Shown here in pieces: positions 17,390-64,000 of a DNA stretch of 64,000 nucleotides. Source of the DNA: Amoebophrya sp. A120 (taxonomy: Eukaryota; Protista; Dinoflagellata); NCBI GenBank assembly GCA_905178155.1, contig CAJINV010000002.1:8203224-8267223 (forward strand). The letters are read 5' to 3'. The first letter of the stretch is position 1. Each line of letters opens with the position of its first letter. Position numbers and translations under genes: made by a program. Below the pieces are notes generated by a model that was not told where the DNA came from, did no database searches, and worked only from the letters and a program-made list of their open reading frames with translations.

Positions 17390-17626
17390 TTAATTTCTTT
17401 TCTAAATTTTGCAGATAAACTTCTTAAAGTTGTGGGGGTGCGTTTTCAACAAATACGTTCAAATTTGTAATGCTAACTCTGAAATTGTACAAGTAAATCT
17501 TACAAGATGTAGTGGCTGTTTTTCAAATTTTCTACACAAGAAAATCAGTAAAAATTTGTAATGCAGGCGCAAGTTTTCTAAACAAGAAAACTAATAAATT
17601 TTGGCTGAATAAAGGTGCGACTAGAT

Positions 17627-36750: not shown

Positions 36751-36909
36751 TTTCGATTTAGTTAGTAGCAAGAATGCTGCGATATAGCGATACCCATAGA
36801 TAACTCCGGTCATCTTGACAATTTTTTTCGAAAGCCGACGAATGTATGATTTGCTGTTAGATGGGACGTGCAGCGGTAAAAGTAATTGTAATATCTTTTC
36901 AGTCAACGG

Positions 36910-39900: not shown

Positions 39901-40249
39901 AGAGAATACAGCAACAGCAAGAAGCGGAAAGGGGGCGAGCGGAACTAATTCAAACGATCAGCGGCAAGAGCTGGGTGCGTTTACCCGGCCAAAGACGGGA
40001 AGTCTGGCGTCTAGAAGAAAGCGACCAGGTGGTGTTTGAAGCAGACAGCACGGATTTTTGCGAAAACACAGGAAGAGAGATAGTGTATGTCTGCGGGGTC
40101 TCCTTTTACAAAGGCCAAGATAACACTTGGCACGCAGAGTGAGTGACTCTCCTGTCACTCCGCACACAGCAGTACTGGGTGCCCGTCCACTCATTAGAAT
40201 GAGAAAAGATAACGTTTATCCCGGACACGCACAAATATGATGATGATGA
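36910..40249 (+). mobile_element. 5'-truncated non-LTR retrotransposon (APE-RT, RTE-like)
   Basis: 12-bp TSD TTCAGTCAACGG at 36898-36909 and 40250-40261. (TGA)n tail. The ORF ending at 40142 has the end of an APE domain (YDHVF, SDHKLV) and RT motifs NYRPVALL, FIDFQKAYDS, GIRQGSSLSPLIF, FVDD, FKYLG. Confidence 0.95.
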
Positions 40250-40695
40250 TTCAGTCAACGGTTACGGTGGACAGTAAATTGTGGTTCTGGAGGGAACTAC
40301 GCATACGCTACAGGTACAGAAGGAAAAGCCGTCCCTGTAGTTGACGCACTTGTTCATGCTTTTTGCGAGAGTTCTCCTGCAGTGATTTTTCAGCGACAGC
40401 AGGTCAGGGAAGAGAGGCAAGTGTATTTGGAGGCGGAGACACGAGAGCCGAGAGTTTTGAATTTCTCAGGATGTGGACGAAATTCAGCTCCCGTCAGGCT
40501 TTTTCATTGTGGAAAGCAGCTTCGCTAAAGAATGGGCGTGATGCCAGCGCCGTCTGAGTAGAGGCCTTTCGACGTCTTCTCTGTGCCTGACATTTGTCTT
40601 TTCCATTAGTTGTTGAAAGCAGTTGCGTTTTTTGTCGAGAAAAGTTTTTGTTTTTCCATTGTGATTGTACCACTTACATATTCATCAAAACCAAA

Positions 40696-42263
40696 ATGAT
40701 GCAAATTTTCCTGAGGTCCGGAAGCGTATCAGCTCGACCGGGGACTGTCTACATCAGGTCGGGACCATTCAGAGGACTGCCGCTGGTCTCATCGACTGTT
40801 GAAAAAAGCTACGGAGTTGTTTTGCCGCGTTCCTCAAATAAACTGACTGCTGCGCAGCTACCAATTCCACAAGGAGCGCAGCACGGAACAAGTAGGCCAC
40901 ACAGCTCCACGACGGCGACAAGCAGCTCCTCATCTTCGTCCACTTCGGGCCGATCGGAATTTGATGACGATTTGTTGAACTTCGACAGGGACAGCCAAAA
41001 AAAGCAACGAAACCGCATACCATCTGTTTTCCGCTTTCTCGGCATGGAGGATAAAATTGGAGTGTTTGTTGAGAAAAGCAGGATGCTGTTCCCAGGGACG
41101 AGTGTTTTCACATCGCGAATTTTTCAAGTACTTGCATCGAGCAGAGGAAGTGCAGGAACTTCTACGTCTTCAACCTCCTCCGGTTTCACGGCCCTGCACC
41201 AAACCTCGGGGTCCCTCGATGCCAACAAAATCTTCGCGCGACGGTTGATCCTGTACGGTGGCGCGATTTGGGTTTTCTCCCTCGGCGCGCTATTTTTCAT
41301 GGTCCCGTTCTTCAAACTGATGTGCCAATCCGGGGGCGATAACGGGGCCGCGAACCGGAACTTCGTCGGCCACAAAACGTACAACCATCTGGAGAAGGCC
41401 GAAGACCCGGTTTGTGCAAACCGATTGGTGAAGGTGAACTTCAACGGCACCGTCGCGACCAACCTGGACTGGGAGTTCCAGCCGCAGCAGCATTCGCTCT
41501 ACGTCGCGGTGGGCGAAACCGCGTTGGCGTTTTTCCGGGCCAAAAACATCGGCACCGAGCCGGTCATCGGAACCTCCACTTACGCGATTTTTCCGCCAGA
41601 GTGCGGGTTGTTCTTCAACAAAATCCAGTGCTTCTGCTTCGACGAGCAGCTGGTGAACCCGGGCGAAGAGGTGGACTTGCCGATTTTGTTCTACATCGAC
41701 CCGGACTTCGCCTACGACAACCGCGTTGCCAAAGTGGAGGAGTGCGAGTTGAGCTATCTGTTCATGCCGAGCGAGTCGAAGGTGCCGACCGATTACGCGG
41801 AACTGCAGGAAATTATTACAATGAAAAATGCCCCCACCCCCCCCACTTGGGGGCATTTGTATTGCAAACCTTTCCAAATGAAACATTCGCCCTCTTGCAT
41901 CTATCAGCATCACAGATTTCCGATCGTGAATAGCAGAAATTTGCATTGCAAAAGATCCCAGCAAGACCGGCGCTTGTCATGCAAGCGATGCGACACACAC
42001 CGAGACTCTGCATCAGAAAGGTTCATACTCCTGTCATGTATGACAAAAAGTTTTCATTTGGAAACTTTGCATCACAACTTTTTGCAACTTTGGGGGTGGG
42101 GGCATTTTTCCTCGCGATAGAAATGCGGGAATTCCAGTTGGAAAAAATGAAGGCGCGGGAGGAGGAAATTGGGAGGCAAAACAAGGTGGTTCCGAAGACG
42201 CTGGGAAATTTAAACAGTTTGGAAGACATCAAAAATCATCCTGCGATTGCGGCAGCAATTTGA
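40696..42263 (+). CDS. COX11: Cytochrome c oxidase assembly protein COX11/CtaG
   Basis: TM helix ending VPFFKLMCQ, then WEFQPQQ, GETALAFF, FNKIQCFCFDEQ, LPILFYIDPDF. Exons 40696-41813 and 42125-42263. Confidence 0.95.
41814..42119. mobile_element. Introner-like TIR element, related to family E
   Basis: TIR tattacaatgaaaaatgcccccaccccc / gggggtgggggcatttttcctcgcgata. TSD GAAAT. Removal gives LQEMREFQ. Confidence 0.93.
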
Positions 42264-42972
42264 GGAAAGTCGGTGATTGGATGTTATTGAAAGAGGTGCG
42301 ATTTTTGTATAAGTAGTTGATGGCGCATGTAGGCGCGCGAGGCGCAGTTGTATCGACTGCAGAGTCGGCCGCGTGTCCAGTAGTGATTTTTGAGTTTGTG
42401 TGCAGAAGATGCACGTGGCCCCGTGCAAAAAGCGACTCGAGTCGAAGACATGATGTTGATGACCGGTGCTGTATGCGAAGGTGTCACTCTTGTTCCGTCG
42501 TTTTGCGACTGTCAGTCTCGTGTCACAGCACGTGCGTGCAATGAAAGTCGTGTGGTCAGCTGTACTCTTACGTCTCACTCCTCTCCCCACTAGCTAAGAC
42601 ATGGACAACTTATCTGCTTCGGGCGTCAGACTTCTGATACCGGGCACAGAGCTGCGTGTGAGATTTCTGAGCAGGAGGACCTAGCGCCTTTATTTCATGC
42701 TTTGTCTCTTTTTCTTCCAAACTGAAAGGGTTCGTAAAAAATTGGGGTGATTTTTTGTTGTCGTGGACAAGGAGACAAGTTTCTTTTGAAAAATAGCGCC
42801 AGCACTAGATTTGGAAGTCTGTGCCTCAGCAAAAACAAAGGCACTGTGGCTACAGCCTCGCAAAGGCTTGCTGAAGTTGAGTGGTCCTATTCTGTGGAAG
42901 TACTATCCGAGCTGCGAGTTCCGCCTCCTCATACATTACTCTGAATTAAAACACCGAACCAACATCGAAAAA

Positions 42973-43179
42973 ATGTCGCAAGCCTCCGGCTATTACCACC
43001 CGCACACCCAGCAGCAGCAGGACGAAAACGCCCAGCGCCAGGCAGTGATCGAAAAGATCATGGCGCTCCAGCAAAACCTTTCGGACGTGACGCTGAAGAT
43101 CGATGCTGCGAGGCAGGAGAACTTGCAGCTGAAAGAGGAAAACGATGTGCTGAAAGATTACGTGCAGCAGCTGGTATAG
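42973..43179 (+). CDS. Short coiled-coil protein (SCOC-like); may have a further exon
   Basis: IEKIMALQQNLSDVTLKIDAARQENLQLKEENDVLKDYVQQL resembles the SCOC pattern. Confidence 0.7.
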   Translation: MSQASGYYHPHTQQQQDENAQRQAVIEKIMALQQNLSDVTLKIDAARQENLQLKEENDVLKDYVQQLV

Positions 43180-46100
43180 TTTAAACTCGGCCGGTTCATT
43201 TTTTGCTCTGTTTTTTTTGTGCGCTTGAGAAACATTTCGACATGATGAAATACCAAACAACGAAAAAAAACAGGTTGCGTCTGTGGAGAGACCATCGGGG
43301 AGTGCGGGTTAGTGGCTCGATATTTGCTTCTTGCACTTACTTTTGACGATACCTTGCGGCTGACACTACAACTCATCTCCGACGGGGCGACGGTTTTTTC
43401 TAGTCCCCTTTCGAAGATACCGTGTACCAAAGCCAAAGCCGCGGGGTGCAGTTGGCGACGACTTCCTGAACGTCCAAGCGAGCTTTTTTGGTGGCGGAAG
43501 ACTCGAATTGCAGCAATTTGGTCGTCGAGCCTCCCGCACTGCGACGCGCCGCGTCACTTGGCGGGCAGCGGGTGATGAAGATATTTGACGAACACAGAAA
43601 GCAAAGGAAATTGCGGGAGTACTTGCGAATTGATAGTCCCACCTTCTGCTGCCGTCACCAGATAGCAGCATCCAATCCGTGTAAAGAAAATGATCTTGTA
43701 CGAGGACCCCTTCGGCGATGACAACCGCTTCCGCGTTCTCGAAGTGCTGGGCAGCGGTGCGGCCGAGCAATGTCGAAGATCAAGATGACGGGCGGAAGTT
43801 GTAGAAAGATTTGCACTGAATCTGAAACTGAATAACGAAGACTGCATTCACGGGCATTCGCCGCAGAGAAGACCCATCTTCACACCAATCGGCGTGTCGC
43901 AATAGGGGAAACATAGACGAGGGGTTTCTACTCGTATGAGGTGAGGATTGATGACCCGGCTCCGGGTCGTGGACCGGAAATTTTGAATTCTTTGTCCATT
44001 AAATTTTGTTGAGTTGGATAACAATTACATTCCGCAATAGACATAATATAACGAGAACGGAGCCAAGCGACTCCCTTTACTGTGTGCACGAATTCACATC
44101 GACTCCAGCATCCTGGATCGGAATCGCAGTCGAACTAAAAAAACGTTGGGCGTGTCTACATTGTAGACTCACCCCGGCAGTCGCTATGACTGTGTCAGCA
44201 AAAAGAAAAACACAGCCAACGAATATGTGTTCGCGTTTATCGTGGCGGGCGGTTCGTGTGCACGTTCACGGTTCCGCAGCCACCGCGGAGCATGTCTTCA
44301 CATGCGCGGCGTGAGTCACTATCATTTTTTTGTTAAGGAAGCACCGCGCACGCGCGCGCCGCATTGCTTGTGTGCGCAACCCATCCGGGAGCGCGCGAGG
44401 TCGCGCGCCACGATTTCCCCGCGTTCGCTGGTAACGTTTTGCCGCGCAGCGGCGCCGCTGCTTCATGCGCTGAAGACGCCCCGGCCCCGATTGCCCCGGG
44501 GTGCAGAGTTCGAGCGTCTGGCGCGTAAGCAAGCAGGGGGGGCCCCTGGGGTGATCGAAGGCGCCCGGCGACCGCGGTGGCGCGCCGCCCCTACGCTGCC
44601 GCCCGCGTGGGCGCCAAGGAAGCGAGGGACGCGCGCGGGCGCTTCATTCGAGCGGGGGCGAACGCCCGCTCGGACTTGGGGGATTCGGAAAACGAGTTGG
44701 CCACGCAACAGGCGGGCGCCGAGGCGGAAGCGGAGAACGTTGGCAGCGAGGCGGTAGGCGCGCCGGCGGCCTTATGCGGTCAAGCGGCCGGCCATTGTTG
44801 CGCCGGGGCCCGATAGGCGCGCGCTTCTTCTAATGTGGCGCGCGCGCCATGGCGCCGCTGGCCGGCCTCCCGCGTGCGCCTCGCTCGCTATGGGGGCGGC
44901 GGCTTCACGCAGTGCGTGTTGGGGGCGACAGCAAAAGCCCAACCATGCTGCGCGTAAATTCATTCGCGCAGCGCGCGCGAATTTAATCGCTTGGATTTCG
45001 AGGAGTCCAGCCGCGTGCCGGAGTCGTGGGGGGCGGCTGTAGTTTGGCCATCCTTATGCCATCGAGCCGGGAGCCAGGCAGCAGGTTGGCGTGCGAACTC
45101 GAAAAGTATGAGGGAGAGCCGCGGAAAGAGAAGGGCCGCGAGCCCCGTCCGCGTCCGAGGCCGTTCGGCCCGCGCCGGGTGCGCCAGCCGCGCAGTACCG
45201 AGCGAGCTGAAGGCCCCGCCGCTTTCTCCTGCGCCCGAGCCGGCGGGCGCGGGGTCGGGCGACTCCCACCGCGTCAGCGACTCCCACCACTGGGCGCTGG
45301 CGTTCTACCAGGACAGGCGAGCGCGGACGCTCTGGGCCGGGCCGGCCCTCGGGGGGGCCTCACGTGGTGCACAGTCGTACATTGAAAGTCACAGGCTCGC
45401 AAAAATTTCAATGGTGCGCGAGGAAATCCGTTCAAGCTGCATGTGTTTGGGTGTGCAGCAGGAGATGGACGACGTGCGTGCCTGCGCGCAGTGGGCCCCT
45501 TGCGCGGACGGCCGCGGGCATGCCCCCGGCCGGGCCCGGATCAATGGAGTTGTCAGCGCAATGCCGCGACGAAACTAACATCACGAAAGAGGAAGCAGGC
45601 AGCGGGGGCCCCCGGCGCTCTGGCGTGAAGGAATCAGCTCGGCGGTGGCTCTTGGGCAGTTGCCCGGCCGCCGCCCCTCAGGGCCCGGCCGCCGGCGCTT
45701 TTCTCTGTCAGTCCGCCCCCTCGGCCGGGGGGGTCGTTTTTCGTTCCTATCGTTTCTTTCAGCCCGGCGCCCCTTTCCGGCCGGCCCGCTGGCTGATCGA
45801 GTGTTCAACGAGTCCGGGCGTTCGAAGAGCTTCCTTCACTGTGTCGGCACTGGTGCCGGAGCAATGGAGACGACCCCTATGCGACTGGGTTTCGAGGCCG
45901 CTTATGCCACGGACAGATCCTTACTTACACGCGCAAGGGCCGAAGATACCAGGAGGCCACAGCGCTCGCTGATAATAGATCTTTCCGAACCCGCAGTGAG
46001 CGAGGCACCGATCAGAATGGAAGATACGCTGTCACGACGAAGCAGCTGGACGCCGACACGCACTCCGCGCCCTGCCGCCCCTTTCCTGTTCTCGAGGTCA

Positions 46101-46770
46101 GGTGGGCAGGCGGCCGGCCGGATGTGCTCGGTCGGTCGGTCGGTGGCCGGCCGCTCGCGCGCTCAATAGATTTCTTCGGTTGGCCGGTGTCCCCATATGA
46201 ATGCCGTAGGGCCCTTTGGGCAGGCCAGGGCCCGCCTGCGCAGCGCAGCCACAGGACGCTGGGGCGCACGCCTTTGCGCGTGCCAGTAAATAGGGGTCTG
46301 GCCGCGTTGCGCGCGGACACCGGCCAGAGGGCCGCTGTTGCTTCGTTAATTTACATGAAGATCCTGGAGGCTAATTCGATGTGCTCGCTTCCATATCGAA
46401 TATGAGGCGATGTCGGCGGCCGGTCGGTTGGTTGCGTGCTGGGCTCGCCCAATGCACGGGGAAGTCGCTCCCGGCCTTCGCTCCTAGCTCGCTCGGCGGC
46501 CCGTCCGTGCAGAACAGCTCGGTCGTGTGTTCATACATTCCATCCGCGCTCTGCCTGTGTTAATTTTTGAAGCCGGTCTTCCCGTTCGTCTTCGTTTCCT
46601 CTCGGATGCATCTCATGCTTACCTTTCCGATACCGTTACTTACCGATACCCGCCGATCGAGCTGTATTTTTATCGCCACGGCGACGGCCGTCAATCCTTT
46701 TTTTCAGATGCCCGCACTACTAACTTTTCCTCTTGCCCTTTTGTGAAGTTTTTCGTCTCAAGTAAGAAAG

Positions 46771-48476
46771 ATGGCCCCTGCTGCTCCTTCCAATTATGCC
46801 GGCGACCAGCAGCCGCTCCCGGAGAAGCTGCGGGAGATTCTTGGGGAGCATTGCCAAGTACAGCGCGTGAACAAGGACCGCAAAATTGTCGGCGCGGCCA
46901 GTCCGGAGGAGCTGGGGCAGTCCATGGAGAACGAGCAGCGTCGGAAATTTTGCGAAAATCAGCTGAGCCAACTGGGTAACGACTTTGACAAGGTGGTCCA
47001 GTGGGTAGAGGCGGTGAAGGCAAAAGCCAATGCTTTGTACTACAGCTCTCGCTACGAACCCGACCGTGTGCAAGAACACGAGCTTGTCTCCGATCCCGCC
47101 TCCGACGAGCAGGCAATTGCTCTTTGTTCGGCTCGTCCTGATGGGACGACTAGTCCAGCTGCGTGCCCGTCCACATCTACTTCCTGTGCAAGTGAAGATT
47201 TGTCCTGCGACCTTGCCAAGCTGAAAGAAGCCGCGTTGCTCTACTACGACTGCTTGTCCGGACTGGAAAAGTGTGCAAAAATTATCGTTGCGAAAGGACA
47301 ATACGATGAGGGAAGTAGCAGCTGCAGCAGCACAACAGAAACCGGAGGCCGAACTGAGAATGAAAAGACGAGAAACTCGTACCAGCAGCAGATACAACTG
47401 CCGATCACGGCCAACCTGGCTGCCTGTATGTTGGAAATGCGGCATTTTCGAGAGTGCATTCGTTTGTGCGACTTGGCACTGTCTGTACAGCCCGATCACG
47501 TGAAGGCGCTTGTCCGCCGAGGTATTGCCTACTACAAGCTACGGGAACCGGGGAAGGCAAAAGTATAGTACTAGACTGTTGCGGTTGATGGGGTTGGAAG
47601 CAACATGACAAAGGCAGGTTCGCGAATCTTTTGAGTAGCTGTCGCTTTGTGCCTGTTTGATGATGAAAAACTATCAATCCCACATTTAGCACAACTTGAA
47701 AAACAAAGGTAGATCTCATTCGCAGCCTCGAGTTGCTGGATATCATGGATGCCGCCACAGCTGGGGACACTGCTGGGACCGGCAGTGCCGCGGCGACAGC
47801 CGGCACTGCAGCTCTGTCAGCGACAACGACAGAGAATCTTCGCCGACGGGCAACTGTGTATTTGAACTGGGCGAGGAAGGCGTTGCAGGAGGATAAGGAG
47901 CGAACACGGAAAATGTTCAACCATCGGCTGTACGAAGAGATGCAGTCTTTGAACTATCAGGAATCGCAACAGAGTCGGTTGGTGAAAGACGGAAATGATC
48001 ATGTACGTGATGAAAATGTTGTACTGCAACAGGAACCGAAGTCGGCGCCGTCAGCTGGTGCTTCCAGTGCAGCCGCGAGGACCCTGTTAGAAGAAGAAGG
48101 CGCAGATGAAGTAGATGAACCACGGCCAAATAAAACGGAGAGCGCAGTAAAGAATGTGTGTAGTAAACAAGACAAAGAGGGGGCTGGCAACTATAGCAAT
48201 ACCGACGACGCAACTTCCCTTTCGACCACTACCCGAGCAAGACGGAAGGATATGTGCAGCACCAGTGATGGCGCGTCGGGTACGACATTTGAGAAAATCA
48301 CTATTCCGAAAGTAAAGAAGAAGAAGGAGCTGAGTTTTTACGCCGACAAGCCAGATGTGAAGATGAACCAGCTTTCCGACGAAGATATTGACCGATTGAT
48401 CAAGGAAGAATTGGAGGAAATCCGTTCCCGGACGTTTTTTCAACAGTGTTGTGGATGTAGGAGGCGGAGAAGCTGA
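46771..48476 (+). CDS. TPR-repeat protein, two exons
   Basis: KAKANALY, NLAACMLEM..CDLALSVQPDHVKALVRRGIAY. A GT-AG intron at 47563-47708 joins KAK|VDLIRSLEL. Confidence 0.8.
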
Positions 48477-48859
48477 CTCCAGTGCGCATAGGATGCCAGA
48501 ATGTGCTTCGTGATGTCCAAATAAGCGTAGTTTTGTCGCTATGGACTCTACGTGAGTGCTTTTGTTGTATGTGTGGAAAAACTCAATAGGATCAGACTGA
48601 TCATATGCAAGATGCCACTATTGATGAAGAACAAGAATTCTGTTGAGAAGGGGAAGGCTGATGTGCTCCTCATGTTTGAGTACGGCTGATTGTTATTGCT
48701 TAGAGTGTTCGAGTATCCGGCCACCAGCTACATTCTTAGTCTTCGCTACTTCTAAGTGCCTCGCGTCGACCCTTCTACTTTTTTGCGCTCACTGATAGTT
48801 GAATTGTTTCAAGGGTTGCAACAAACTATTGCTCGTCCTCGATCGAAAGCAGCATCATT

Positions 48860-49477
48860 ATGCAAGCGTTGGGCGTTGCAACCATTTCGCGCACACCTGT
48901 TGCCGATCGCTTTCTCTTCGCCCGCACCACACGGGCACTGGTTGCTCCACCGCCGCCTTCTGGTGTAATTCTATTTTCTGCAACCAGCTCCACATGCTCA
49001 ACTCGTTGCACCGTTCCAAGTCGGTCTCAGTTTCTGCCACACCACTGCTTCTCCACCGCAGCTTCAGCCGACGCCACTACTTTCGCGTCCAGTAGCTCTA
49101 CTAGCTCGGCAGGGGAGCAGCTGCCGCAGCAGAATCTCCCCAATAATCTCGTAACTCCTTCTAGTTTCTCGTTTCGCAGTACACTCTCAAAACGGGACCC
49201 GGTCCCCGCGCTCGAGAACAAGCGGAACAAAGCCGGACCGCCGTTCTACGTGAAGCGCACCTCGAGCGGGAATTTGCCCATTTATGTTTTCAAGAAGAAC
49301 AACAAAACGCTTGCGCTTACGGTGATTCGCAAGGTTCGCGGCGATATCAACGAGCTGAAAAAACAGCTGGAGGTGCTTTGTCGTACCCGAGTGAGGATAT
49401 CAGAATCGCAAGGACTAGAAATATTTGGCGACTGCAAGAACGTGATACGGAGCTACTTGGAAGGCTGCGGGTCGTGA
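48860..49477 (+). CDS. Mitochondrial ribosomal protein mL49 (Img2)
   Basis: FYVKRTSSGNLPIY...TVIRKVRGDINELKKQL...GLEIFGD, preceded by a Ser/Thr/Arg-rich presequence. Confidence 0.85.
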   Translation: MQALGVATISRTPVADRFLFARTTRALVAPPPPSGVILFSATSSTCSTRCTVPSRSQFLPHHCFSTAASADATTFASSSSTSSAGEQLPQQNLPNNLVTPSSFSFRSTLSKRDPVPALENKRNKAGPPFYVKRTSSGNLPIYVFKKNNKTLALTVIRKVRGDINELKKQLEVLCRTRVRISESQGLEIFGDCKNVIRSYLEGCGS

Positions 49478-50180
49478 AAAGTGATCGGGAAAAAAGTATA
49501 GAAGAAGCGGCACCTGCTACATTTTTTGTTTCTCTTTTTTGGATTAGAGTTCGTTGCTCGCTATCTGTAGTGCGCGAGACAGTCTGTGCTTCATTATCTT
49601 GTTCTTCCATTTGATTTCAAGCCGGGTAAAGCTACAGTTATTGGACACAGCTGAGCGCTCAGGCATGATGTATTGATTTCTCCGCGTACGCACCACGAGA
49701 AGTCGTTATCGACAGGAGAGCTGAGTGAGTACCCTCCCAGACGAGTTGTAAAGGAGCGAGATTATATTCAGTAAGAGAGACACGAGGCCAAAGCGAAGCG
49801 AGAGTTTGTGTTTGATCGAGAGTTCTCGTGATGTATTCCGACCGAGATTGAGTTTGAGAGCACCGAATGTAGTGTGCTTTCCTCGTGTTGTTTGATAACA
49901 TCGATAAATCTTTGATTTCGGGCCAAAGATGTCGAAGAGCAAGCTACTTCAAGTACTACTTTCAGGATCAGGAGATAGTTGGTTCATCAACTTACTTTTC
50001 ACAACAGAGGAAGAACGTAGCCTCAGGTTGCCCATTTCGAATTCGACATTTGCATGCGGATGTTGCGTCCCATTGTTTTACTAGTCTCGTGGTACGAAGA
50101 AGTTCAAGGTTGGTCGTGTCTAGCTTTTCTCGAGAGAAAATTCTAGTGTGCAATACAGAAACACACGACCCCAGCGCAGA

Positions 50181-52300
50181 ATGGAGTCGACGCGGCGCAC
50201 GGAAGGACGTCATGATGCTCTCTCGTCCTCGCCCACTGGCGGTACCGATCGAAGCAGTGAGACAGCTGTTTTAACTGGAACCAGCAGGAGCAGTTCCAGC
50301 AGAAATCTCCACTGGCGGGAAGAACAGAGGGACCACAACGTGGGCGAGAGAAGCAGGAGGTCTTTCCAGCCGGCATCGTGCCACCAGGTAGTACCGCAGC
50401 ATTGTGCAACTGACTGTTCCAAGGAAGAAGACCTTTTCTATGATGCGCACGAAGATTTTTCGAACGCGACGACCCCACCTGCGTCCTCCAGAACGAGGGG
50501 AATAAATCGGAGCAGCGAGGAAAGAAGCCGAAGCAGTAATAACTCTCACGACCACGGCACCAGCGGCTCCTACACGCCAGCAGAAGTAGCGCAAATTGAA
50601 CTAGCGACATGCGCGATTCTTGAGTCAACAGAAGAACGTCCTCTGCCGTGCTTCTGCAAAACAAGCTCAAAGCCGCGAAGACCCCGAAGAGCTGACGGCA
50701 AGACGAGCAACAGTTGTCACTTCTCTTCGCGTAGCGGGGGTAAAGCAACGAGAAGTCCAGCAAAAAAGTCGGAAGCAGGACAAAAGACAAACCGCACAAC
50801 TCGCTTCAGCCGGTTTTTCCTCGGAGCGTGCAGTTTGGCCGGGTCAGCGTACGCACTGTCCAACCAGTGTCGAGTGGAATTCGATAAGATGTACCTCGAG
50901 GACGTGCAGCGTACAGTTTCTTTTTTGATTTCGCTTCTAAATCGAAATCTCTCGCTCTCCTGTGATGAAGTGGACGGTTTTTTCTGTTGCATGCACGCAT
51001 CTATCGATCTCTCTGCGTTGAACAGCAACATCATACATAATAGCTTTTATCCACCACACAACAGATTTCATTTCCTGGAAACATTTTTGGACGTTTTGCG
51101 GGGTGAGACAGCAGAATCGGCTGGCGACGTGCTGCGACACAATCGACTTCGCGACCAAGCAGTCCAGCGGGTGCACAGACGCTTGTAAGGATTTATTTGC
51201 ACAGGATTTATTTTCACGCTGATATATGTGATTCTAATTTTGTTTAATGTCTCATTCACACTCACGCTGCTCTCATCATCGTTCGGTGCACGGCTGTGAT
51301 GTCGAGTGGCACGCAGCTTCGTGAGGGATACGTATAAACTTTGGGTTGAAAGAAAATGAAAATGATTGTAAGATTTAGTTGGTAATCTCCGTCTTCTTCA
51401 TGGCAGGGTCATGTACAACACACAGGTAAAACGACTTGCCTCTTCTCCGAGTACGAAAATTTTTGCGAGGGCGCAGCACCGGCAAGCACGCCCAGGATCG
51501 CGTGCACTGCAACGCGGCTGCCCTACAAGGTACAATACATTGCTGTTTCCGCACTAACAGAAGTGCAACTACGTACATTCTACGGCCAAGGATGTTAGTA
51601 GAACTATGCCAAACAGAGCAATTTCGATGAGATTGATTTCTTTGCTGCACTTCGTTCAACAATACTGCAAAAAAATACAGAGCGACATCGGGGAATTCCA
51701 ATCGGAGGAGACTTTCTGCATTCCCGAGTCGTGTAACACAGACGCGGATTTAGCTGGTATTGATTCCACTGGAAATTGGAATTGTTTGAAGTGGAAGTAG
51801 TAGTAGATGAAGTTAAAAATTCGATTTAGGTATTTGCTTCTATCAATGATGAGAGTTCGCGTGTTAGTTATAGTTTTGTTTGGGATAGAATACAAGCACA
51901 CGAATAAAAAGATCTAGATCAACATTTCGCCAGTGTCAATCTACAGTGTGGTAAGTATGTTGTGCCTCGAGAACGCATTATACGCTTTTTCTGAATGCCA
52001 GGTATTATGGAGCACTACTCCACCTCCGTGCAGGAGGACATTGACCCACTATATTCCACCGGAGAGTACACGGATGCGGTCATCACCTGCCCGTCCAACA
52101 CCCTGCAAACGGTTTTGATCGTGCTTGGCGTGATTTTCGGGGTGGCTAGTCTCGCTGGGCTGCTGTACTACCTGTGCCGGGTGCCGGCGCAGGCGCTGGA
52201 CACGGGCGTCAGCTCGAGGACGATTGCCCCCGAGAATGTGGTCTTCCGCTCCAAAGAGATCATGGACGCCGAGGGGCAAAACAAGGCGATTGGGATGTGA
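50181..52300 (+). CDS. Multi-exon hypothetical membrane protein (exon structure uncertain)
   Basis: Coding-like blocks at 50181-50900, about 51065-51170, 51426-51530, 51680-51756 and 52002-52300. The last contains the TM segment VLIVLGVIFGVASLAGLLYYLC. Confidence 0.5.
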
Positions 52301-53700
52301 TGCAATTCTATTATGTCTGAACAGAACTTTTTTGTCGTGCTGAGACTTCTGCAAGGGGGAAGGGAAAGTTATACATAGTTAGAGCTGCATCATTTACAGT
52401 CGTCGTCTCAGGAAGTGCTATGTATTTGTAGTTTAGTTTTTATCTTCGAAGGCGTAGGCTCACCAGGTCTTGATCTGCCCTTACTACACCTGATTATACT
52501 ATCATAATTTGCAAAACGTCATGAAGGTGAATATCGCTTCCGTGACCGAAGAATCGAATTTAGACAGAGATGAGTCAAGAAGTTAGTTGCGAACTTTGCT
52601 TGTACGCCCAGAAAGGATTAATTCGAACAATAGCTAGCCCGACTTTTTTGATAGCGCATTGCTTCGACAGAGAAACGCCAATAGTTGTAAAGAGCTTCTT
52701 ACACGAGCCTTGTTTTTGACTAAAGGAAAAATTGAAACTACACCGATGAAAAAAGAGGTCAATGGGGACCAGAATGATGAAAGAAACGAGATGAAACAGA
52801 TTTACTGAGCTACTTGCAACAGATGAAATACAAATGAGATAATGTTTTTCACTGTACCAACTTGTCGTTTTCTTATTTTACAAGGACTCCACAACTACAA
52901 CTGCAGTCAACGCAACTCAACTATGCAAATAGCTGCAAAGTCCGCCTTCCTTTGGCGTTCCATTGCGATAGGCTGCGCCCCGACATGTTGAACCTCACAG
53001 GTTTTTGAGAATTCAGGTGGAGCCACTGCTTACATCGATCTAGCTCAGGATCCAAGCTGCTAGCAATGTACGTACCGGGTGGGCAAGCTCTCCTCTATTT
53101 TCCTCTTACGACATGCGGCATTGGATCTGCCTTTGTGACCGCATGGATCAACATTACCGTCGCAGTTTCCACATCATACGGCCCGTGGTCTTCACCACGA
53201 AGATCATCCCCAAGATGCTACAGCTCTGATCCAAAGCTCTTGAAGAGCAGTGTACTTCGTATATGAAACGCTGTGGTGCAGCTACTGAAGGAGCGACTGG
53301 TTCTGTGGATCTTCAGGATCTGCCGACCACCATTGGTGGATGGCACAATAGCAGGTCTTTCGAACAGTAAGTGAGCGTGTAAACACGGTCGCCGTGTTGG
53401 CATACGCATACGCAGAAGAACTAGTAATAGGGACTTACTGGCATCTTCAAGACAGATAGGGTTGCATCGTCGTATTGATTCATAGTTTCCTCTGATTTCC
53501 GCCATCACGATTTTTCCACTGCTCCCTATTACCCCTTTCTATGTTCGGCTGTGTGTTTACTTTTAGACAAAACCCAAGATAGACCATTGATCACAAGTTT
53601 TTCGAACAGAAGATTTAAGTGAAGCTGCCCCTTGCTCTCTCCCCCCCAGATTCGGGTTTTTTTTCCAATGCCGTGCTTATCCTTTCCACACATGAAGCAG

Positions 53701-56700
53701 ATGGCCTTGTGTGGCCGAGTCGTCGCGTTTTTTTTTGCAGCAGCAGCTGGAGCTACCGAACCGGTTTTCGGAGCACAGCTACCGCAGCAAAATCCACAGG
53801 AGTCGTGGTCGCAGCGGCACTCCGTGCCGCTTCTGCGGGGCGCAGCTACGGAAGAACCATCTACACAGGGCAGCACGAGTGGAACTATTGAGGCGGCAGA
53901 AGAAGTGGTCGGAGCATCTACTCGCGAAAGAACGTCGAGCTCAGATCCTCGGCTGCTGCACTTTCGCGAGTGGCTCGACCTGGAGTTTCAATTTTACAAG
54001 TCGAAGTTGGACCAAGTGTCTCTCCCCGAGGGGGTGTACGAGCGGCTGAAGCACTTTTTTCGGAAAGACAGAAATGCTTTGCGACATGACGTCACGGTGA
54101 CGGAAGTTATTGCGCCCCTCAACGTCGACATCGAGAGACAGATCCGAAGTCGCGCGGACGGGAAGCACGCGATTCTGTGGCACAACGCACTTCCCCTGCG
54201 CGCTGAGTCATTTGCAGAGACGGGGCGAAAAGCTGCATGGGAGAAAAATGTAGTGAGCCGTAGTTTTCCACCCGCCGATGAAGAGGAACTTGCACTTGCC
54301 GAAGCGTCACCTCCCCAGAAATCTTGCGCAGAAGATAGTGACTTATTTTGTGATAGTACTAAAATGCCTCTTTTTCGATTTCAAAGCAGCAGAAGCAACG
54401 GCATTATGATCAAAGACGGGAGTCTGCTACCAGCGACGGAAACGCAGAATCTTTTTGGTCTCAACGACTGTTTTGAGGAACCGGGTGAAGTGAAGCACAG
54501 GTACGTAGGCGTGAAGGCCAGCCCGTTGCGGGTTCGGGACAGGGAGACGGGGGTCGTTTCGGAAAATTTCTCCGCTGCACAGTACGATTTGCTGATGCAC
54601 TTTCTGACGAGTGCGACTGAAAGAGATGTTGAAAAACATCGTTTTGAGCAAGATGAAGATTTTATTGACCAAAAACCACTTTTCGCAGTAGCCCCGCTGT
54701 CCGACCGCCTGCAGAAAACTGCGGCGGGCATGCAGTGGATCATACAAAGAACATATCCCAAAGAAAAAAGCCGACAGGTCAGAAAAAAAATAATTAAATA
54801 ATAATTGTTATTGTCAACAATAAAAGCAAAACAAAACAACAAAAAAAATTGCCGCCATACCATGCGGATTAGCTTCAGGACAGATCAGCAATCCGCGCGA
54901 ATCACGGTGGGACTGTTATTGTCAACAATAAAAGCAAAACAAAACAACAAGAATAAACTGCCGCCATACCATTCGGATTAGCTTCAGGACAGATCAGCAA
55001 CCCGCGCGAATCAGGGCGGGACGGCGATCGCCTGCTTTTTTTATTTTTGCGACGAATTTCGCCCATTCGCGCCATACCGTGCGGGCTGGGTTTCGTAGGG
55101 GGTTGCCGGGCTGGGTTTCGTAGGGGGTTGCCGGTTTCGCCAATCCGCACGGCACGGCGCCCGCAGTCGGTTTTGCGGCTTTTGCGGATTTCCTATGTTC
55201 GCGCCATAGCGTGCGGGCTGGCTTTCTGGCGAAGCTGCCGGCTTCGCGAATCCGCACGGCACGGCGGTCGCGGTTAGTTTTTTTAAATTTTGGCGAGTTT
55301 TTTTGTTTCGCGCCATACCGTGCGGGCTGGGCTTCGTACGGGGTTGCCGGTTTCGCCAATCCGCACGGCACGGCGTCCGCCGTCGGTTTTGCGACTTTTT
55401 GCAAATTTTTGCTGTTCGCGCCATAGCGTGCGGGCTGGCTTTCTGGCGAAGCTGCCGGCTTCGCAAATCCGCATGGCGCGGCGGCCGCGGTTAGTTTTGT
55501 GAATTTTGGCGATTTTTTTTCTTTCGCGCCCTACCGCGCGGGCTGGGCTTCGTAAGAGGTTGCCGGCTTCGCCAATCCGCACGGCACGGCGCCCGCAGTC
55601 GGTTTTGGGACTTTTGGCGAATTTCCTTTGTTCGCGCCATACCGTGCGGGCTGGCTTTCTGGCGAAGCTGCCGGCTTCGCGAATCCGCACGGCACGGCGG
55701 CCGCAATTAATTTTGTAAATTTTGTCGGGTTTTTTCCTTTCGCGCCATACCGTGCGGGCTGGCCTTCGGGCGAAGTTGCCGGCTTCGCGCATCCGCATGG
55801 AACGGCGGCCGCAATTAGTTTTGCGAATTTTGGCGAGTTTTTTGCCTTCACGCCATACCGTGCGGGCTGGCGGTCGCAAGAGGGTGCCGGCGTCGCGAAT
55901 CCGCACGGCACGGCGATCGCAATTATCGCTCCAAAATAGGAAGGCAGGAGCTTGGAAACCGTCGAAGATTTTGCCAGCTTTGCGAATGTTCCCGAATGTC
56001 CGGAGTCGCCGGATTCAGAGGCGGCGAGGCGTCAAACCCTCGCCAAGCTTTTCAACTTTTGGGAATGCCAAAAATGCGACCCCCTCCTCTATCTGCGGAA
56101 GCTGGCATACTTCAAGCAAATTGCTCCCGCTTCTGGTAATTTTTGCCGAGTTCGTCCGCGGATACTTTCGAATATTCGGAATCGCTTCAAAATAGGCAGG
56201 CAGGAGTTTGGAAACTGTCGAAGGTTTTGCCAGCTTTTCGAATATTCCCGAATATTCGGAATCGCCGGAATCAGAGGCGGCGAGACTTCAAATCCTTGCC
56301 AAGTTTTTCAACAATTGGGAACGCCAAAAATGCGACCCCCGCCTCTATCTGCGGAAACTGACATACTCAAAATAAATTACTTCCTCTTCTGGAAATTTTT
56401 GCCGAGTTCGTCCGCGGATACTTTCGAATATTCGGAATCGCTTCAAAATAGGCAGGCAGGAGTTTGGAAACTGTCGAAGGTTTTGCCAGCTTTTCGAATA
56501 TTCCCGAATATTCGGAATCGCCGGAATCAGAGGCGGCGAGACTTCAAATCCTTGCCAAGTTTTTCAACAATTGGGAACGCCAAAAATGCGACCCCCGCCT
56601 CTATCTGCGGAAACTGACATACTCAAAATAAATTACTTCCTCTTCTGGAAATTTTTGCCGAGTTCGTCCGCGGATACTTTCGAATATTCGGAATCGCTTC

Positions 56701-59700
56701 AAAATAGGCAGGCAGGAGTTTGGAAACTGTCGAAGGTTTTGCCAGCTTTTCGAATATTCCCGAATATTCGGAATCGCCGGAATCAGAGGCGGCGAGACTT
56801 CAAATCCTTGCCAAGTTTTTCAACAATTGGGAACGCCAAAAATGCGACCCCCGCCTCTATCTGCGGAAACTGACATACTCAAAATAAATTACTTCCTCTT
56901 CTGGAAATTTTTGCCGAGTTCGTCCGCGGATACTTTCGAATATTCGGAATCGCTTCAAAATAGGCAGGCAGGAGTTTGGAAACTGTCGAAGGTTTTGCCA
57001 GCTTTTCGAATATTCCCGAATATTCGGAATCGCCGGAATCAGAGGCGGCGAGACTTCAAATCCTTGCCAAGTTTTTCAACAATTGGGAACGCCAAAAATG
57101 CGACCCCCGCCTCTATCTGCGGAAACTGACATACTCAAAATAAATTACTTCCTCTTCTGGAAATTTTTGCCGAGTTCGTCCGCGGATACTTTCGAATATT
57201 CGGAATCGCTTCAAAATAGGCAGGCAGGAGTTTGGAAACTGTCGAAGGTTTTGCCAGCTTTTCGAATATTCCCGAATATTCGGAATCGCCGGAATCAGAG
57301 GCGGCGAGACTTCAAATCCTTGCCAAGTTTTTCAACAATTGGGAACGCCAAAAATGCGACCCCCGCCTCTATCTGCGGAAACTGACATACTCAAAATAAA
57401 TTACTTCCTCTTCTGGAAATTTTTGCCGAGTTCGTCCGCGGATACTTTCGAATATTCGGAATCGCTTCAAAATAGGCAGGCAGGAGTTTGGAAACTGTCG
57501 AAGGTTTTGCCAGCTTTTCGAATATTCCCGAATATTCGGAATCGCCGGAATCAGAGGCGGCGAGACTTCAAATCCTTGCCAAGTTTTTCAACAATTGGGA
57601 ACGCCAAAAATGCGACCCCCGCCTCTATCTGCGGAAACTGACATACTCAAAATAAATTACTTCCTCTTCTGGAAATTTTTGCCGAGTTCGTCCGCGGATA
57701 CTTTCGAATATTCGGAATCGCTTCAAAATAGGCAGGCAGGAGTTTGGAAACTGTCGAAGGTTTTGCCAGCTTTTCGAATATTCCCGAATATTCGGAATCG
57801 CCGGAATCAGAGGCGGCGAGACTTCAAATCCTTGCCAAGTTTTTCAACAATTGGGAACGCCAAAAATGCGACCCCCGCCTCTATCTGCGGAAACTGACAT
57901 ACTCAAAATAAATTACTTCCTCTTCTGGAAATTTTTGCCGAGTTCGTCCGCGGATACTTTCGAATATTCGGAATCGCTTCAAAATAGGCAGGCAGGAGTT
58001 TGGAAACTGTCGAAGGTTTTGCCAGCTTTTCGAATATTCCCGAATATTCGGAATCGCCGGAATCAGAGGCGGCGAGACTTCAAATCCTTGCCAAGTTTTT
58101 CAACAATTGGGAACGCCAAAAATGCGACCCCCGCCTCTATCTGCGGAAACTGACATACTCAAAATAAATTACTTCCTCTTCTGGAAATTTTTGCCGAGTT
58201 CGTCCGCGGATACTTTCGAATATTCGGAATCGCTTCAAAATAGGCAGGCAGGAGTTTGGAAACTGTCGAAGGTTTTGCCAGCTTTTCGAATATTCCCGAA
58301 TATTCGGAATCGCCGGAATCAGAGGCGGCGAGACTTCAAATCCTTGCCAAGTTTTTCAACAATTGGGAACGCCAAAAATGCGACCCCCGCCTCTATCTGC
58401 GGAAACTGACATACTCAAAATAAATTACTTCCTCTTCTGGAAATTTTTGCCGAGTTCGTCCGCGGATACTTTCGAATATTCGGAATCGCTTCAAAATAGG
58501 CAGGCAGGAGTTTGGAAACTGTCGAAGGTTTTGCCAGCTTTTCGAATATTCCCGAATATTCGGAATCGCCGGAATCAGAGGCGGCGAGACTTCAAATCCT
58601 TGCCAAGTTTTTCAACAATTGGGAACGCCAAAAATGCGACCCCCGCCTCTATCTGCGGAAACTGACATACTCAAAATAAATTACTTCCTCTTCTGGAAAT
58701 TTTTGCCGAGTTCGTCCGCGGATACTTTCGAATATTCGGAATCGCTTCAAAATAGGCAGGCAGGAGTTTGGAAACTGTCGAAGGTTTTGCCAGCTTTTCG
58801 AATATTCCCGAATATTCGGAATCGCCGGAATCAGAGGCGGCGAGACTTCAAATCCTTGCCAAGTTTTTCAACAATTGGGAATGCCAAAAATGCGACCCCC
58901 GCCTCTATCTGCGGAAACTGACATACTCAAAATAAATTACTTCCTCTTCTGGAAATTTTTGCCGAGTTCGTCCGCGGATACTTTCGAATATTCGGAATCG
59001 CTTCAAAATAGGCAGGCAGGAGTTTGGAAACTGTCGAAGGTTTTGCCAGCTTTTCGAATATTCCCGAATATTCGGAATCGCCGGAATCAGAGGCGGCGAG
59101 ACTTCAAATCCTTGCCAAGTTTTTCAACAATTGGGAATGCCAAAAATGCGACCCCCGCCTCTATCTGCGGAAACTGACATACTCAAAATAAATTACTTCC
59201 TCTGCTGGAAATTTTTGCCGAGTTCGTCCGCGGATACTGCCGAATATTCGGAATCGCTTCAAAATAGGCAGGCAGGAGTTTGGAAACTGTCGAAGGTTTT
59301 GCCAGCTTTTCGAATATTCTCGAATATTCGGAATCGCCGGAATCAGAGGCGGCGAGGCTTCAAATCCTTGCCAAGTTTTTCAACAATTGGGAGTGCCAAA
59401 AATGCGACCCCCGCCTCTATCTGCGGAAACTGACATACTTAAAATAAATTACTTCCTCTTCTGGAAATTTTTGCCGAGTTCGTCCGCGGATGCTTTCGAG
59501 TATTCGGAATCGCATCAAAATAGGCAGGCAGGAGTTTGGGAAGTGCCGAAGGTTTTGCCAGCTTTTCGAATATTCCGAATATTCTCGAATATTCGGAATC
59601 GCCGGAATCAGAGGCGGCGAGAATAGAAATCCTTGCCAGGTTTTTCAACGCTTGGGAATGCCAAAAGTGCGGCCCCCATCTCTATCTGCGGAAGCTGACA

Positions 59701-62607
59701 TACTTAAAATTAATATATTGCTTCGCCCTCTGGAAGTTTTGCCGAGTTCGTCCGCGGATACTTCCGAATATTCGGAATCGCCCGAATCAGAGGCGGCGAG
59801 GCTTCAAATCCTTGCCAAGTTTTTCAACGCTTGGGAATGCCAGAGATGGTATGGCGCGAAAAAAAAAACCCGCCAAAATTTACAAAACTAATTTCGGCCG
59901 CCGTGCCGCGCGGATTCGCGAAGCCGGCAGCTTCACCAGAAAGCCAGCCCACACGCTATGGCGCGAACAAAGAAAATCCGCCAAAAGTCGCAAAACCGAC
60001 TGCGGGCGCCGCGCCGTGCGGATTGACGAAGCCGGCAACCTCTTACGAAGCCCATGGCGCGAAAGGAAAAAACCCGCCAAAATTTACAAAACTAATTGCG
60101 GCCGCCGTGCCGTGCGGATTTGCGAAGCCGGCAGCTTCGCCAGAAAGCCAGCCCGCGCGGTATGGCGCGAGCAAAGGAAATTCGCCAAAAGTCGCAAAAC
60201 CGACTGCGGGCGCCGTGCCGTGCGGATTGGCGAGGCCGGCAACCTCTTACGAACCTGCACGGTAAAGCGCAAAGGGGAAAACTCGCGGAAATTTACAAAA
60301 ATAATTGCGGCCGCCGTGCCGTGCGGATTCGCGAAGCCGGCAGCGTCGCCAGAAAGCCAGCCCGCACGGTATGGCGCGAACATAGAAAATTCGCCAAAAG
60401 TCGCGAAACCACTTGCGGGCGCCTTGCCATGCGGTTTGGCGAATTCGGCAAACTCTTACGAAGCCCAGCCCGCACGGTATGACGCGGAACAAAAAAGCTC
60501 GCCAAAATTTGCAAAACTAATTGCGACAGCCGTGCCGTGCGGATTCGCGAAGCCGGCAGCTTCACCAGAAAGCCAGCCCGCACGCCATGGCGCGAACGTA
60601 AAAAATTTGCAAAAAATCGCGAGACCGACTGCGGGCGCCGTGCCGTGCGGATTGGCGAAACCGGCAACCCCTTACGAACCCCAGCCCGCACGGCATGGCG
60701 CGAATAAGCGAAATTCGCCACAAAAATGATTTAGGCGGGCGATCACCGTCCCACCGTGATTCGCGCGGATTGCTGATCTATCCTGAAGCTAATCCGCATG
60801 GTATGGCGGCAATTTTTTTTGTGGTTTTTTTTTGCTTTTATTGTTGACAATAACAGTTATTATTTAATTATTTTTTTTCTGACCTGTCGGCTTTTTTCTT
60901 TGGGATAGAACATTTATCGACGGCGACAACGAGGAAAACAAACTGTTGGACCAGAAGTTTCACACTGGATCGCTGTTGCTTCCGCCTGAAGTAGAAGAAA
61001 GCTACTACAAGCCTGAGTTCGCGGGCGGCGAGTATCCCGTCTTGGTTGCAAAAGCATTGAAACAGTACCTCTTTCGGAGTTTCGACGGTGATACACCAGC
61101 TACTGATACTTCCACTGCAGCAGCAGTTATGGAAGTAGAACAAGACGATCATTTATTTTTCCGTTCCCATTTCGGCGAATCTAGAGCCGCGGAAGAACGT
61201 GCTTTCACAGTGTCAGATACGATGGACGTCGACGAGGAATATCATCATGTCGACGGACTGCCATGGTCCCGCCCAGACGAAGTGGAGGAAGCTGATGCAG
61301 TACAGACGGCCACGCATTTCATGAGTGACGCGAGCAGCAAAAACGTACTGTACGGGACGAGTGAAATCGATGAAGACGAAGATAATTATTCCAATGCAGT
61401 AACAGATATCCTGCCCTCTACATCTTCCCCCCTTGCCGTCCACTACATTTTTCAGGAAAAGCACCGCTACCATCTGGCTGTGGACTGCTCTGGCGACGAG
61501 AAAGAGACGCTGTCATCCTGTCTTGCGGACAACTTCGAAGATCTAGGCAATATTAAATCCCGACACGAGGAGGTGGAAAGAACAAAGAGCGCGGACGAGA
61601 TTCTGAAGCAGCAGCAGCTCCAAGCATCTACTGCTTCAACTGAAAAAAACCTCCTGCTGTGCCCATTAGCCGCGCAAAGCGGAAAAATTTCCGTTCTGCA
61701 GTCGAAGTTCGCATTCACCTACGGGTCGCTTTTTGTCCTTGATATTGACGAAAATAAAGTGCCTGCTCCTGTTGCAGCTTTACCGGCCTACTCCGGGTTT
61801 TGCGGCTGCTTCGGGGACTGCTTCGCCGGCCTTGCGACGGCTTCGTCCAGCGGGGATTCGCTCGGGTGCGGCTGGCCTTCTTGGTTCGAATTGATGTCCT
61901 CTGGCGATACAACTGATTCTATGGTCAAAGAGTCGGAGAAAATAAGTCTTTCGCAGCAACAGGAGTTCTTCAAGCGCCAGCGCTCGGGAACCCACATTGT
62001 CTCGCTGGAAGAGGACGCGGCAATGTTTTATTGGATTTCTCGCGAAGAGTGGGAAAAAGAAAAAGACAGCGGAAAGCGCAACGGGAGCGGTTTAATAGAA
62101 ACAGGTAACGTTGCAGTTGCTTGTAAAAATGAACGCATCAGGCTGTCGAGGATTACTACTGGCGGGCAACGGCTGCGAGAAGAAGATGAGCGTCGAGCAG
62201 CTCCAATACCGAAATATTCTTGTACAAGCACTTCTCGTCCCACGACTACCACCTCCTTCGAGGAACAGACCAAAACCAGTGCGTTCTGGGAAGGAAAACT
62301 GAAATCTTTGAGCCCGTACGCTGTGGTTCCCTTGAATGAAGATAGCGATACCGGAAAAAAGACCTGGCCAAGACCACAAACGCTCGAGAAGCTTCGCACA
62401 CAAACACTGGCCCTCAAGTTGATGTCCTGCAACAATATTGAAACTCTGGACAACAGCAAGGTCGAATGCTTAACAGCTGGAACCGCTTCTACCACTGTGC
62501 TCAATTCTGTGAAAATTTTTTCCCGCGGTGGCTACGGCAGAGGCTTTTTTGATTCGCACGGGGACCGGTGGCTGGATGGCCGGATTGTAGTCCCGGACTT
62601 ACAATGA
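53701..62607 (+). CDS. Hypothetical, possibly secreted protein (about 915 aa) split by the 6.15-kb TIR element
   Basis: 53701-54753 and 60913-62607 join in frame (WIIQRT|FIDGDNEE). Hydrophobic N-terminus VVAFFFAAAAGA. Confidence 0.75.
54754..55925. repeat. Left arm: terminal IR plus tandem ~108-bp modules
   Basis: 108-bp duplication 54806-54913 / 54914-55022. The core cgccataccgtgcgggctgg recurs near 55069, 55200, 55309, 55417, 55525, 55633, 55741 and 55849. Confidence 0.9.
55926..59845. repeat. 256-bp tandem array, about 15 copies
   Basis: The unit anchor caaaataggcaggcagg recurs every 256 bp from 55932 to 59516. Central copies are identical and edge copies are diverged. Confidence 0.98.
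59846..60907. repeat. Right arm: inverted ~108-bp modules plus terminal IR
   Basis: About 9 copies of ccagcccgcacggtatggcgcg, the reverse complement of the left-arm core. Confidence 0.9.
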
Positions 62608-64000
62608 CCTTCGGAATTATTATATACAGAGGAAAGGCGGGTAGTAGAAAAAACGCCTTCGGCACAATTTTTGCAGAATAGTGGTTTTTCGTTTCATCTT
62701 CCAAGAACGATACGTGAGTGTTTTTGTTTCCGTCATCGGCAGTCGGTGGCTGCAAGGACGATCATGCGTTTTTTATATAGTTCTCGTGATATTTATCATA
62801 CATAAAAAAGATGACGACATATTTGGCGAGCCGATGGTGCTTTTGTGTAAAGAAAACGCTGACCTGATGTCGAATGATAGTTGGTACGTCCTCCACTGCG
62901 CGCTTGTTTATTCCCCCTCCGCCTTTATCGCACTCTGTGGGGCGCTGTTGCTCCAGTTTGTGGCCAGCTCGTAGATGGAGAAGTGTTAGAAGCACACAGA
63001 TTTACATGTCTACTATCAGCTCCACCATGCCCAGGACCTCGATTTTTAGTTTCAAATCAATACTTTAATATTAACACCCTTGAAGATGTTGATGGACGTC
63101 GAAACTACCTCTAATCAATGCCAATGCCAGGGAAGAACTAAGTGGGTCCGAAACGACCGACATGGTAGTCGAGGTGCGTATGCTCATGCACGCCATCAAA
63201 TTGAACTGCCTATGTATGAAGGACGAAGATCATGAATGTCATGTGATCTCTTATCGTGTTAGTACTTTTGTAGACAGTAGAAATACAAACATAGTTGCAG
63301 AGCTTGCCTGCAGCGGCCCGATCCACGTTTTAGATTTGCGATACATTGATCCGTCAGATATGAAGAAGAAGATCTATTTTCCGTTGCAACGACTTCGCCG
63401 AAGTCTAGACGAAGATCTGATGACCAGCTGCTACCTACTTCCGCACAGAGTAGCAGTCAAGTTGGGTAATTAGATGGTCAGACGTCTCCTGCCCCTAGCT
63501 GGTCCGAATTCTATTCTTGGTTCCCGTAGTCTTGGTTGTTGCATTTATTTGCGGATCTGAATCTTGCCTGCGGAAGCGCAATATTTTTTTGATAACAAAG
63601 TACTTACCATATGAATTGTAGAAATGATATCTTCATTTTGCTCCTTAAGGATAAAGGCCTGCTAAGATGTCGCGGGGTATGATCTAGTTGTCGCACGACT
63701 TGTACTTCTTCCGATACTAGCAAATGATACCTATTCGCGTAGAGCGACCTCGGCCTCCCTGAGACCGATAGGTACGTGCGGACTAATTTCTACTGCTGAC
63801 GGAACTTGATATAAAGGTAAAACCTCCACAATGTGCTCTTTTCAGTGCCGCTTTTCAAGAAAAGAAGAAGCTGCTTTCATCGATCTTTAAGGTTGAAGAT
63901 TACCACATAACATTGAGAACACGACAAACTCTAAATCTGTTTCATCGACGTTTTTTTTATTTTCCAAAGGACTACTAACAAAAGGTAAAGGACCACCACA

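Follow-up and report, generated by a model that had tools for sequence, protein, structure and literature searches.

The interrupted gene and its surroundings

We analysed a 64,000-nucleotide stretch of the genome of Amoebophrya sp. A120, referred to here as the window, in which a protein-coding gene on the forward strand is interrupted by a large, repeat-rich insertion. The coding part of the first exon comprises 362 codons from the first in-frame ATG (53668..54753), where contigs of one sequencing run, X3, cover 53693-54276 and reach 54754. The second exon (60913..62607, forward strand) adds 564 codons and a stop, and corresponds to residues 131-694 of P0001, a public record whose source name describes it as an Amoebophrya sp. 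A120 protein. Cutting out the element together with one copy of the duplication that flanks it (6,159 nt) leaves a single open frame of 926 residues from the ATG at 53668. This is in line with a first-pass annotation of the locus, made by reading the sequence, which had counted 351 codons from an ATG at 53701 and 565 codons including the stop, fused without an intervening stop; the 5' count becomes 362 when taken from 53668.

The 3' half of the host protein has one homologue, P0001, among 7,993 scored candidates. Pfam searches returned no family in either host half or in P0001, and a structure atlas gave no feature match for the host protein (TM of at most 0.26 by query, for a model with a pLDDT of 0.25). 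In metagenome contigs, 83 pattern matches to this protein were found, none of which was confirmed, and these searches brought up no orthologue with an empty site. The host frame is open from 53623, and the public model begins at 54364; given the X3 contig at 53693-54276 and the open frame upstream, that model is probably shortened at its 5' end, by ~230 codons. The additional N-terminus contains a hydrophobic stretch that may be a candidate signal peptide.

Elsewhere in the window there are seven short elements, 149-321 bp in length, that have TAT...ATA ends and duplications of 4-5 bp, together with three variants. One of the seven, of 306 bp (41814-42119), lies in the Cox11 gene, and since the depth of another run, X1, is about 24,000 here as against 45, it appears to belong to a very high-copy family. 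The six further short TAT...ATA elements, likewise with 4-5-bp duplications, occupy 1372-1623, 2436-2584, 3482-3760, 3847-4081, 23900-24220 and 29403-29637, and four of them cluster within 3 kb. Relatives of the element at 1372 are found at 24741-24998, 28523-28784 and 28836-29087; two of these lack an exact flanking duplication, and one starts with TAC instead of TAT, 51 bp from its neighbour.

Retroelements are present as well. A Copia-type LTR retrotransposon on the reverse strand (12121-18034; 408-bp LTRs 99.8% identical, RVT_2 domain) has no target duplication within 3 bases of its aligned ends, and its LTRs lack TAT ends, so that it provides no link to a mobilising enzyme for the TAT...ATA elements. 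A 1,093-codon frame with an RVT_1 reverse transcriptase domain (36861-40142), likely a non-LTR retroelement, has an adenine glycosylase gene on one side and Cox11 on the other. Two stretches of high GC content (63-69%), 33000-35000 and 44200-46500, contain numerous overlapping frames; the one frame scanned there (45211-45969) matched no Pfam family, and an X3 contig maps to 45631-46296 within the second stretch. Rfam gave no matches across the whole window.

Architecture of the inserted element

The body of the element spans 54754-60907 (6,154 bp) and has TAT...ATA ends. It is flanked by two copies of a 5-bp target-site duplication, GAACA, at 54749..54753 and 60908..60912, so that the interval of 54749-60912 given in the first-pass annotation corresponds to the body plus both copies. 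If the element were retained in the message, an in-frame stop would be met at 54799-54801, 15 codons in. The two ends form a 51-bp terminal inverted repeat without mismatch, the left copy (54754..54804, forward strand) starting with TAT + 7 nt + AAA and the right copy (60857..60907, reverse strand) ending in ATA; over the first 100 bp there are 3 mismatches.

These termini cap arms of ~1.1 kb (about 54754-55924 and 59851-60907), in each of which a subterminal unit is accompanied by about eight modules of 108 bp. The 109-bp subterminal unit, which is duplicated in the left arm only (54806..55022, forward strand), is related to the modules at 52-65% identity. In the remainder of the left arm (55023..55924, forward strand) two types of module alternate with a period of 216 bp, and a 25-bp duplication at 55082-55134 is again confined to this arm. 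The right arm (59851..60856, reverse strand) repeats the module series in inverted orientation, two of its modules being shortened by small deletions. Modules of the same type are ~73-96% alike, both within an arm and between arms, and arm-versus-arm identity falls from 96.4% in the outermost 166 bp to 83.1% when 1,015 bp are aligned. Between the arms lies a tandem array of 15.0 copies of a 256-bp unit (55925..59781, forward strand). Among 14 full units that were measured, ten are identical, and the other four, the outer ones, are 88.7-99.6% alike; comparison of the unit with the arms gave nothing significant (best E 0.24). None of the 11 long frames scanned in the element reaches the Pfam cut-off, the three matches seen being at chance level (E 0.06-0.1). 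The element thus displays the features of the foldback class, namely long inverted arms with internal tandem modules and a non-coding middle, and the earlier description of TAT...ATA ends, a perfect 5-bp duplication, ~1.1-kb arms of 108-bp modules and a central 256-bp satellite without coding capacity is confirmed.

The end pattern is far beyond chance. When we searched for a TAT...ATA pair with an exact 5-bp duplication and terminal complementarity over 16 bases, the window contained 4 instances with at least 15 of 16 bases complementary, compared with 0 in 100 shuffles, and 8 with at least 11 of 16, compared with a shuffle mean of 0.13. One pair at the lower threshold (42611-47394, 11/16, 5-bp repeat) spans transcribed genes and was set aside as a chance match.

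Evidence for removal from RNA

The junction expected from removal of the element is already present in the public protein record: residues 1-130 of P0001 map to 54364-54753, and residue 131 onward maps from 60913. The gene models of Amoebophrya were built from aligned transcripts, ordinary predictors having failed on these genomes (PMC7789003). We then compared four of ten listed runs (X1, X3, X8 and X9) with positions 40500-54800. X3 places 25 contigs on this interval, which skip three GT..AG introns as well as the 306-bp short element with its duplication (41808/42120). It was from the skipped GT..AG introns, rather than from a database record, that X3 was classed as RNA-type, and these skips are what spliced RNA would show. 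Within Cox11, the segment missing from X3 is the element plus one duplication (311 nt), and its loss restores a C-terminal tail.

At the large element, one X3 contig carries a 200-letter loose end behind 54754. The 30 letters compared are identical to 60914-60943 and unique in the window; the loose end is therefore the exact predicted junction, joining 54754 to 60914. This amounts to one contig from one RNA-type run at a depth of about 3-4. The X3 data are contigs, from which rare forms are dropped, so that transcripts that retain the element or are mis-spliced cannot be counted; no X3 contig continues past the end of the compared stretch into the element. The P0001 gene model and X3 may not be independent, as the model was possibly built on related RNA data. 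Two raw-read RNA runs, X8 and X9, have no reads anywhere on the 14.3 kb and hence do not bear on the junction.

X1 differs in that its depth is even, at about 45, across genes and spacers, and one of its contigs (12,693 nt, 0 differences) runs from 42090 to 54782, crossing the left junction and stopping 29 bp into the element. X1 is DNA-type, and its contig enters the element rather than skipping it. An indirect match comes from word content: X3 and X4 each contain 0.40 of the sampled words of 53000-62900, which equals the fraction that the two coding halves make up (0.155 + 0.245), and X1 contains 0.77. Removal of the element from RNA is thus supported by one RNA-type contig and by a public protein model. 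The main prediction of the first-pass annotation, that transcripts would carry the exact junction, is borne out by both, and its alternative of a simple gene knockout is accordingly disfavoured.

The same product results from eight equivalent cuts (AG..AT, GA..TA, AA..AG, AC..GA, CA..AA, AT..AC, TA..CA and AT..AT), none of which reads GT/GC..AG; the junction is non-canonical, and no in-frame canonical alternative exists among GT or GC donors up to ~110 nt from the left end and AG acceptors up to 60 nt from the right end. On the forward strand, the right terminal repeat contains CTGAC at 60879-83, which we take to be a branch-like site, as well as a stretch of pyrimidines preceding the AG at 60907-08, so that in the AA..AG cut the motif lies 26 nt upstream of the AG. 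With this cut, which leaves a U2-like acceptor, sequence signals at the end may, besides the stem, help to define the 3' end. A ..AG cut is possible in three of the seven short elements tested and is therefore not a general rule. The AT..AC cut (54753-54758, 60911) begins with ATATCC, presumably resembling a U12-type donor, and as six of eight listed duplications end in A, most elements could start with AT; an AT..AC cut is possible in none of the seven.

We also predicted the fold of the whole 6.2-kb stretch as RNA, and obtained 939 arm-arm pairs beginning at the termini. In all six arm lengths tested, 50-51 of the 51 terminal nucleotides were predicted to be paired, and the predicted terminal 51-nt duplex has an energy of -75 kcal/mol as against -3.6 for separate local folds. 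During transcription, hairpins within modules could form before the arm duplex.

The junction might be explained in ways other than by pairing of the arms. Sequence signals, instead of the stem, could direct a relaxed spliceosome, using either AA..AG with CTGAC or AT..AC with ATATCC. Both pairs of ends do occur among the eight equivalent cuts, and CTGAC and a pyrimidine run stand 26 nt upstream of the AG, but such signals would sit inside the predicted stem, and they are not general, given that three of seven short elements allow ..AG and none AT..AC and yet the ends are shared. In addition, U11 and U12 are reported to be absent from A120, whose introns are described as having no common dinucleotide signature (PMC7789003), and we regard this explanation as unlikely. 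We hold it to be quite improbable that reverse transcriptase switched template across the stem at the direct repeats, with the gene being disrupted in the cell. Stems accompanied by direct repeats are known to give rise to spurious non-canonical introns (PMC4176328), and all of the evidence is of the cDNA type; however, an unspliced template should leave behind the unpaired 256-bp array, whereas the coding halves already account for the whole word share of X3 and X4, and none of the X3 contigs reaches into the element. A disrupted gene would also sit poorly with a 3' half that is free of stops for 564 codons, and with the same kind of removal restoring the C-terminus of Cox11.

The remaining alternatives concern DNA, and both seem to us very unlikely. 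The element could be missing from the DNA of the cells that supplied the RNA, through an empty allele or through programmed excision of the kind that removes ciliate IESs: X1 and X3 are different samples, and exact loss of the element with one duplication is how an empty site in DNA would look. Yet a single X1 contig crosses the left junction at even depth, X3 also skips ordinary introns, and, apart from a 2-base gap at 52309 at low depth, X3 has no single-base differences from the window outside the short element and thus looks like the window's own strain. As for the assembly, the array may be over-expanded or pieces may have been joined, the true intron being much shorter. That ten of 14 array units are identical, that X1 contains 0.77 of the words and that no element-spanning read was seen would be compatible with such an error, but both ends bear the matching duplication and repeat, the left junction lies within a DNA-type contig, and the arms differ by 4-17% with their module types in order, which neither a collapse nor a mirror error would yield; doubt is thereby limited to the copy number of the array.

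Relation to introners and a proposed mechanism

The known sequences closest to the element are the introners of A120 itself (Farhat et al. 2021, PMC7789003). Like them, it has TAT + 7 nt + AAA at both ends, inverted termini, direct repeats in a family where these measure 3-5 nt, a non-canonical junction and no transposase, and it resides in the same organism; the proposal in the first-pass annotation that large and small elements share one end rule therefore holds, and extends to this A120 motif. Two further proposals of that annotation, that one transposase class mobilises large and small elements alike and that the terminal stem by itself may define removal, are more conjectural. The element differs from the introners in its length of 6,154 bp, where the non-canonical introns of A120 average 240 nt and the catalogue has a range of 40-1000 bp, and in its modular inverted repeat of ~1.1 kb, where theirs measure 8-20 nt (PMC7789003). 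No internal similarity to the short elements of the window was detected at E <0.001. We therefore favour, as the best reading, that the element is a foldback-sized variant of the A120 introners that lies outside the catalogue of Farhat et al.

Long introners of A120 are, on the other hand, on record. In sd07.xlsx, a table from the supplement to Gozashti et al. 2025 (PMC12130899) of which we considered 56 of 58 A120 rows, with column heads that are partly legible, the automated entries for family 25 (4 introns) measure 1,474, 4,033 and 5,627 bp and show satellites together with a nearly full-length inverted repeat. This family is classed as Unknown, and its likeness to the element, drawn from the table entries, is tentative. 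On an equally tentative reading of the columns, family 86 has an entry of 1,619 bp with satellites, families 122 and 60 have entries of 6,806 bp and 4,491 bp, respectively, with satellites, and family 38 has one of about 810 bp with a 5-bp TSD and TA/TA termini. The host gene identifier is absent from supplementary file sd02 of the same study, and a search of papers outside subscription found none that connects foldback elements with introners. The novelty implied by the first-pass annotation was overstated, since the junction is already annotated and multi-kilobase, satellite-bearing A120 introners appear in a published table (PMC12130899).

In shape, the element resembles the foldback transposons Tetris, FB and Galileo, which are described as having long modular arms with internal tandem repeats, a module-related flanking domain and a non-coding middle without transposase (PMC4079207). 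Its array, in contrast to theirs, is central and does not significantly resemble the arms (best E 0.24), and exact removal from mRNA is not among the properties that the available text of PMC4079207 reports for Tetris, FB or Galileo. Moreover, Tetris makes duplications of 8-10 bp and is placed in Mutator (PMC4079207), and the 5-bp duplication argues that the element is not a foldback of the Mutator type. The Foldback label of the first-pass annotation is thus apt for the shape, and fails if taken to mean a Mutator-type family.

The nonconventional introns of euglenids also have non-canonical borders, paired ends and junction repeats, and reach lengths of up to 4.7-5.9 kb, with 5.9 kb recorded in Euglena (PMC11170887, PMC11282704). 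They belong to another lineage, however, with CAG/CTG end pairing and short terminal pairing as opposed to the kilobase arms seen here, and they leave as circles (PMC11170887, PMC11282704). Ginger2/TDD transposons offer a parallel in the size of the duplication, which is 5 bp for TDD-4 and TDD-5, and their terminal repeats of 50-180 bp compare with the 51 perfect base pairs of the element (PMC2836005); their TGTNR termini nonetheless differ from TAT, and the element has no integrase-like gene.

Taken together, these data are probably best explained by a non-autonomous DNA transposon of the A120 introner type that inserted into a coding exon and is cut from the pre-mRNA by means of its paired arms. 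Terminal repeats flanked by a 5-bp duplication suggest cut-and-paste insertion, as in TIR transposons. Insertion would then have been carried out by a transposase acting in trans through a 5-bp staggered cut. No transposase lies within the element, and no second full copy was found in the data examined; nor did Farhat et al. detect a transposase in A120 (PMC7789003). A Ginger-like, integrase-related enzyme is our best guess, and a guess it is, as family 38 is classed in sd07.xlsx as 'Ginger, 5-bp TSD, TA/TA termini' although the text describes it as without Ginger termini (PMC12130899). The terminus of the element has no matches in metagenome contigs. In X1, a bin containing 47 bp of the terminus has a depth of 134.7 compared with 44.7, which, by hand arithmetic and with the caveat that depth is no copy number, suggests some 20 further ends, either of sister copies or of short elements with the same end. 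Judging from the anatomy, a 108-bp module may have been duplicated in tandem to extend the arms, and amplification of the 256-bp unit may have enlarged the centre.

In the transcript, the arms of this introner-type element are predicted to anneal into a long duplex, with the array looped out between them and the two copies of the target sequence drawn close to each other. Removal of 6,159 nt then restores the frame, a step that can be seen in one RNA-type contig. In A120, Farhat et al. detected neither U1 snRNA nor a minor spliceosome, and they proposed hairpin-guided joining (PMC7789003). It seems reasonable to suggest that the U1-lacking spliceosome put forward for the short A120 introners is also the cutter here, in which case the size of the intron would be of little weight, and that this modified spliceosome would cut within the target copies once the stem has aligned them. 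A wider reading, that a paired terminal stem with a flanking duplication suffices for intron removal in A120 whatever the content and without GT-AG, strikes us as possible, although we stop somewhat short of calling it probable.

Amoebophrya splices its non-canonical introns without a detectable U1 snRNA, and the founding study covered introns of up to 1 kb (PMC7789003). Exact removal of 6 kb separates the hypotheses, in that recognition on the scale of a hairpin fails, while pairing of the ends or signals at the ends can explain it. The element also offers a large, trackable substrate, both for tracing what is excised, be it a lariat, a circle or a linear molecule, and for addressing the question of reverse-transcription artefacts. 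If the wider reading is correct, removal is accurate to the base and needs no GT-AG even for a 6-kb foldback whose duplex measures ~940 bp and whose satellite loop measures 3.9 kb, and elements of the same end class could insert into exons cheaply and expand freely. The finding suggests that exon insertions can be close to harmless in the A120 genome even when they are 20 times as large as usual, and this would let foldback arms and satellites grow inside genes.
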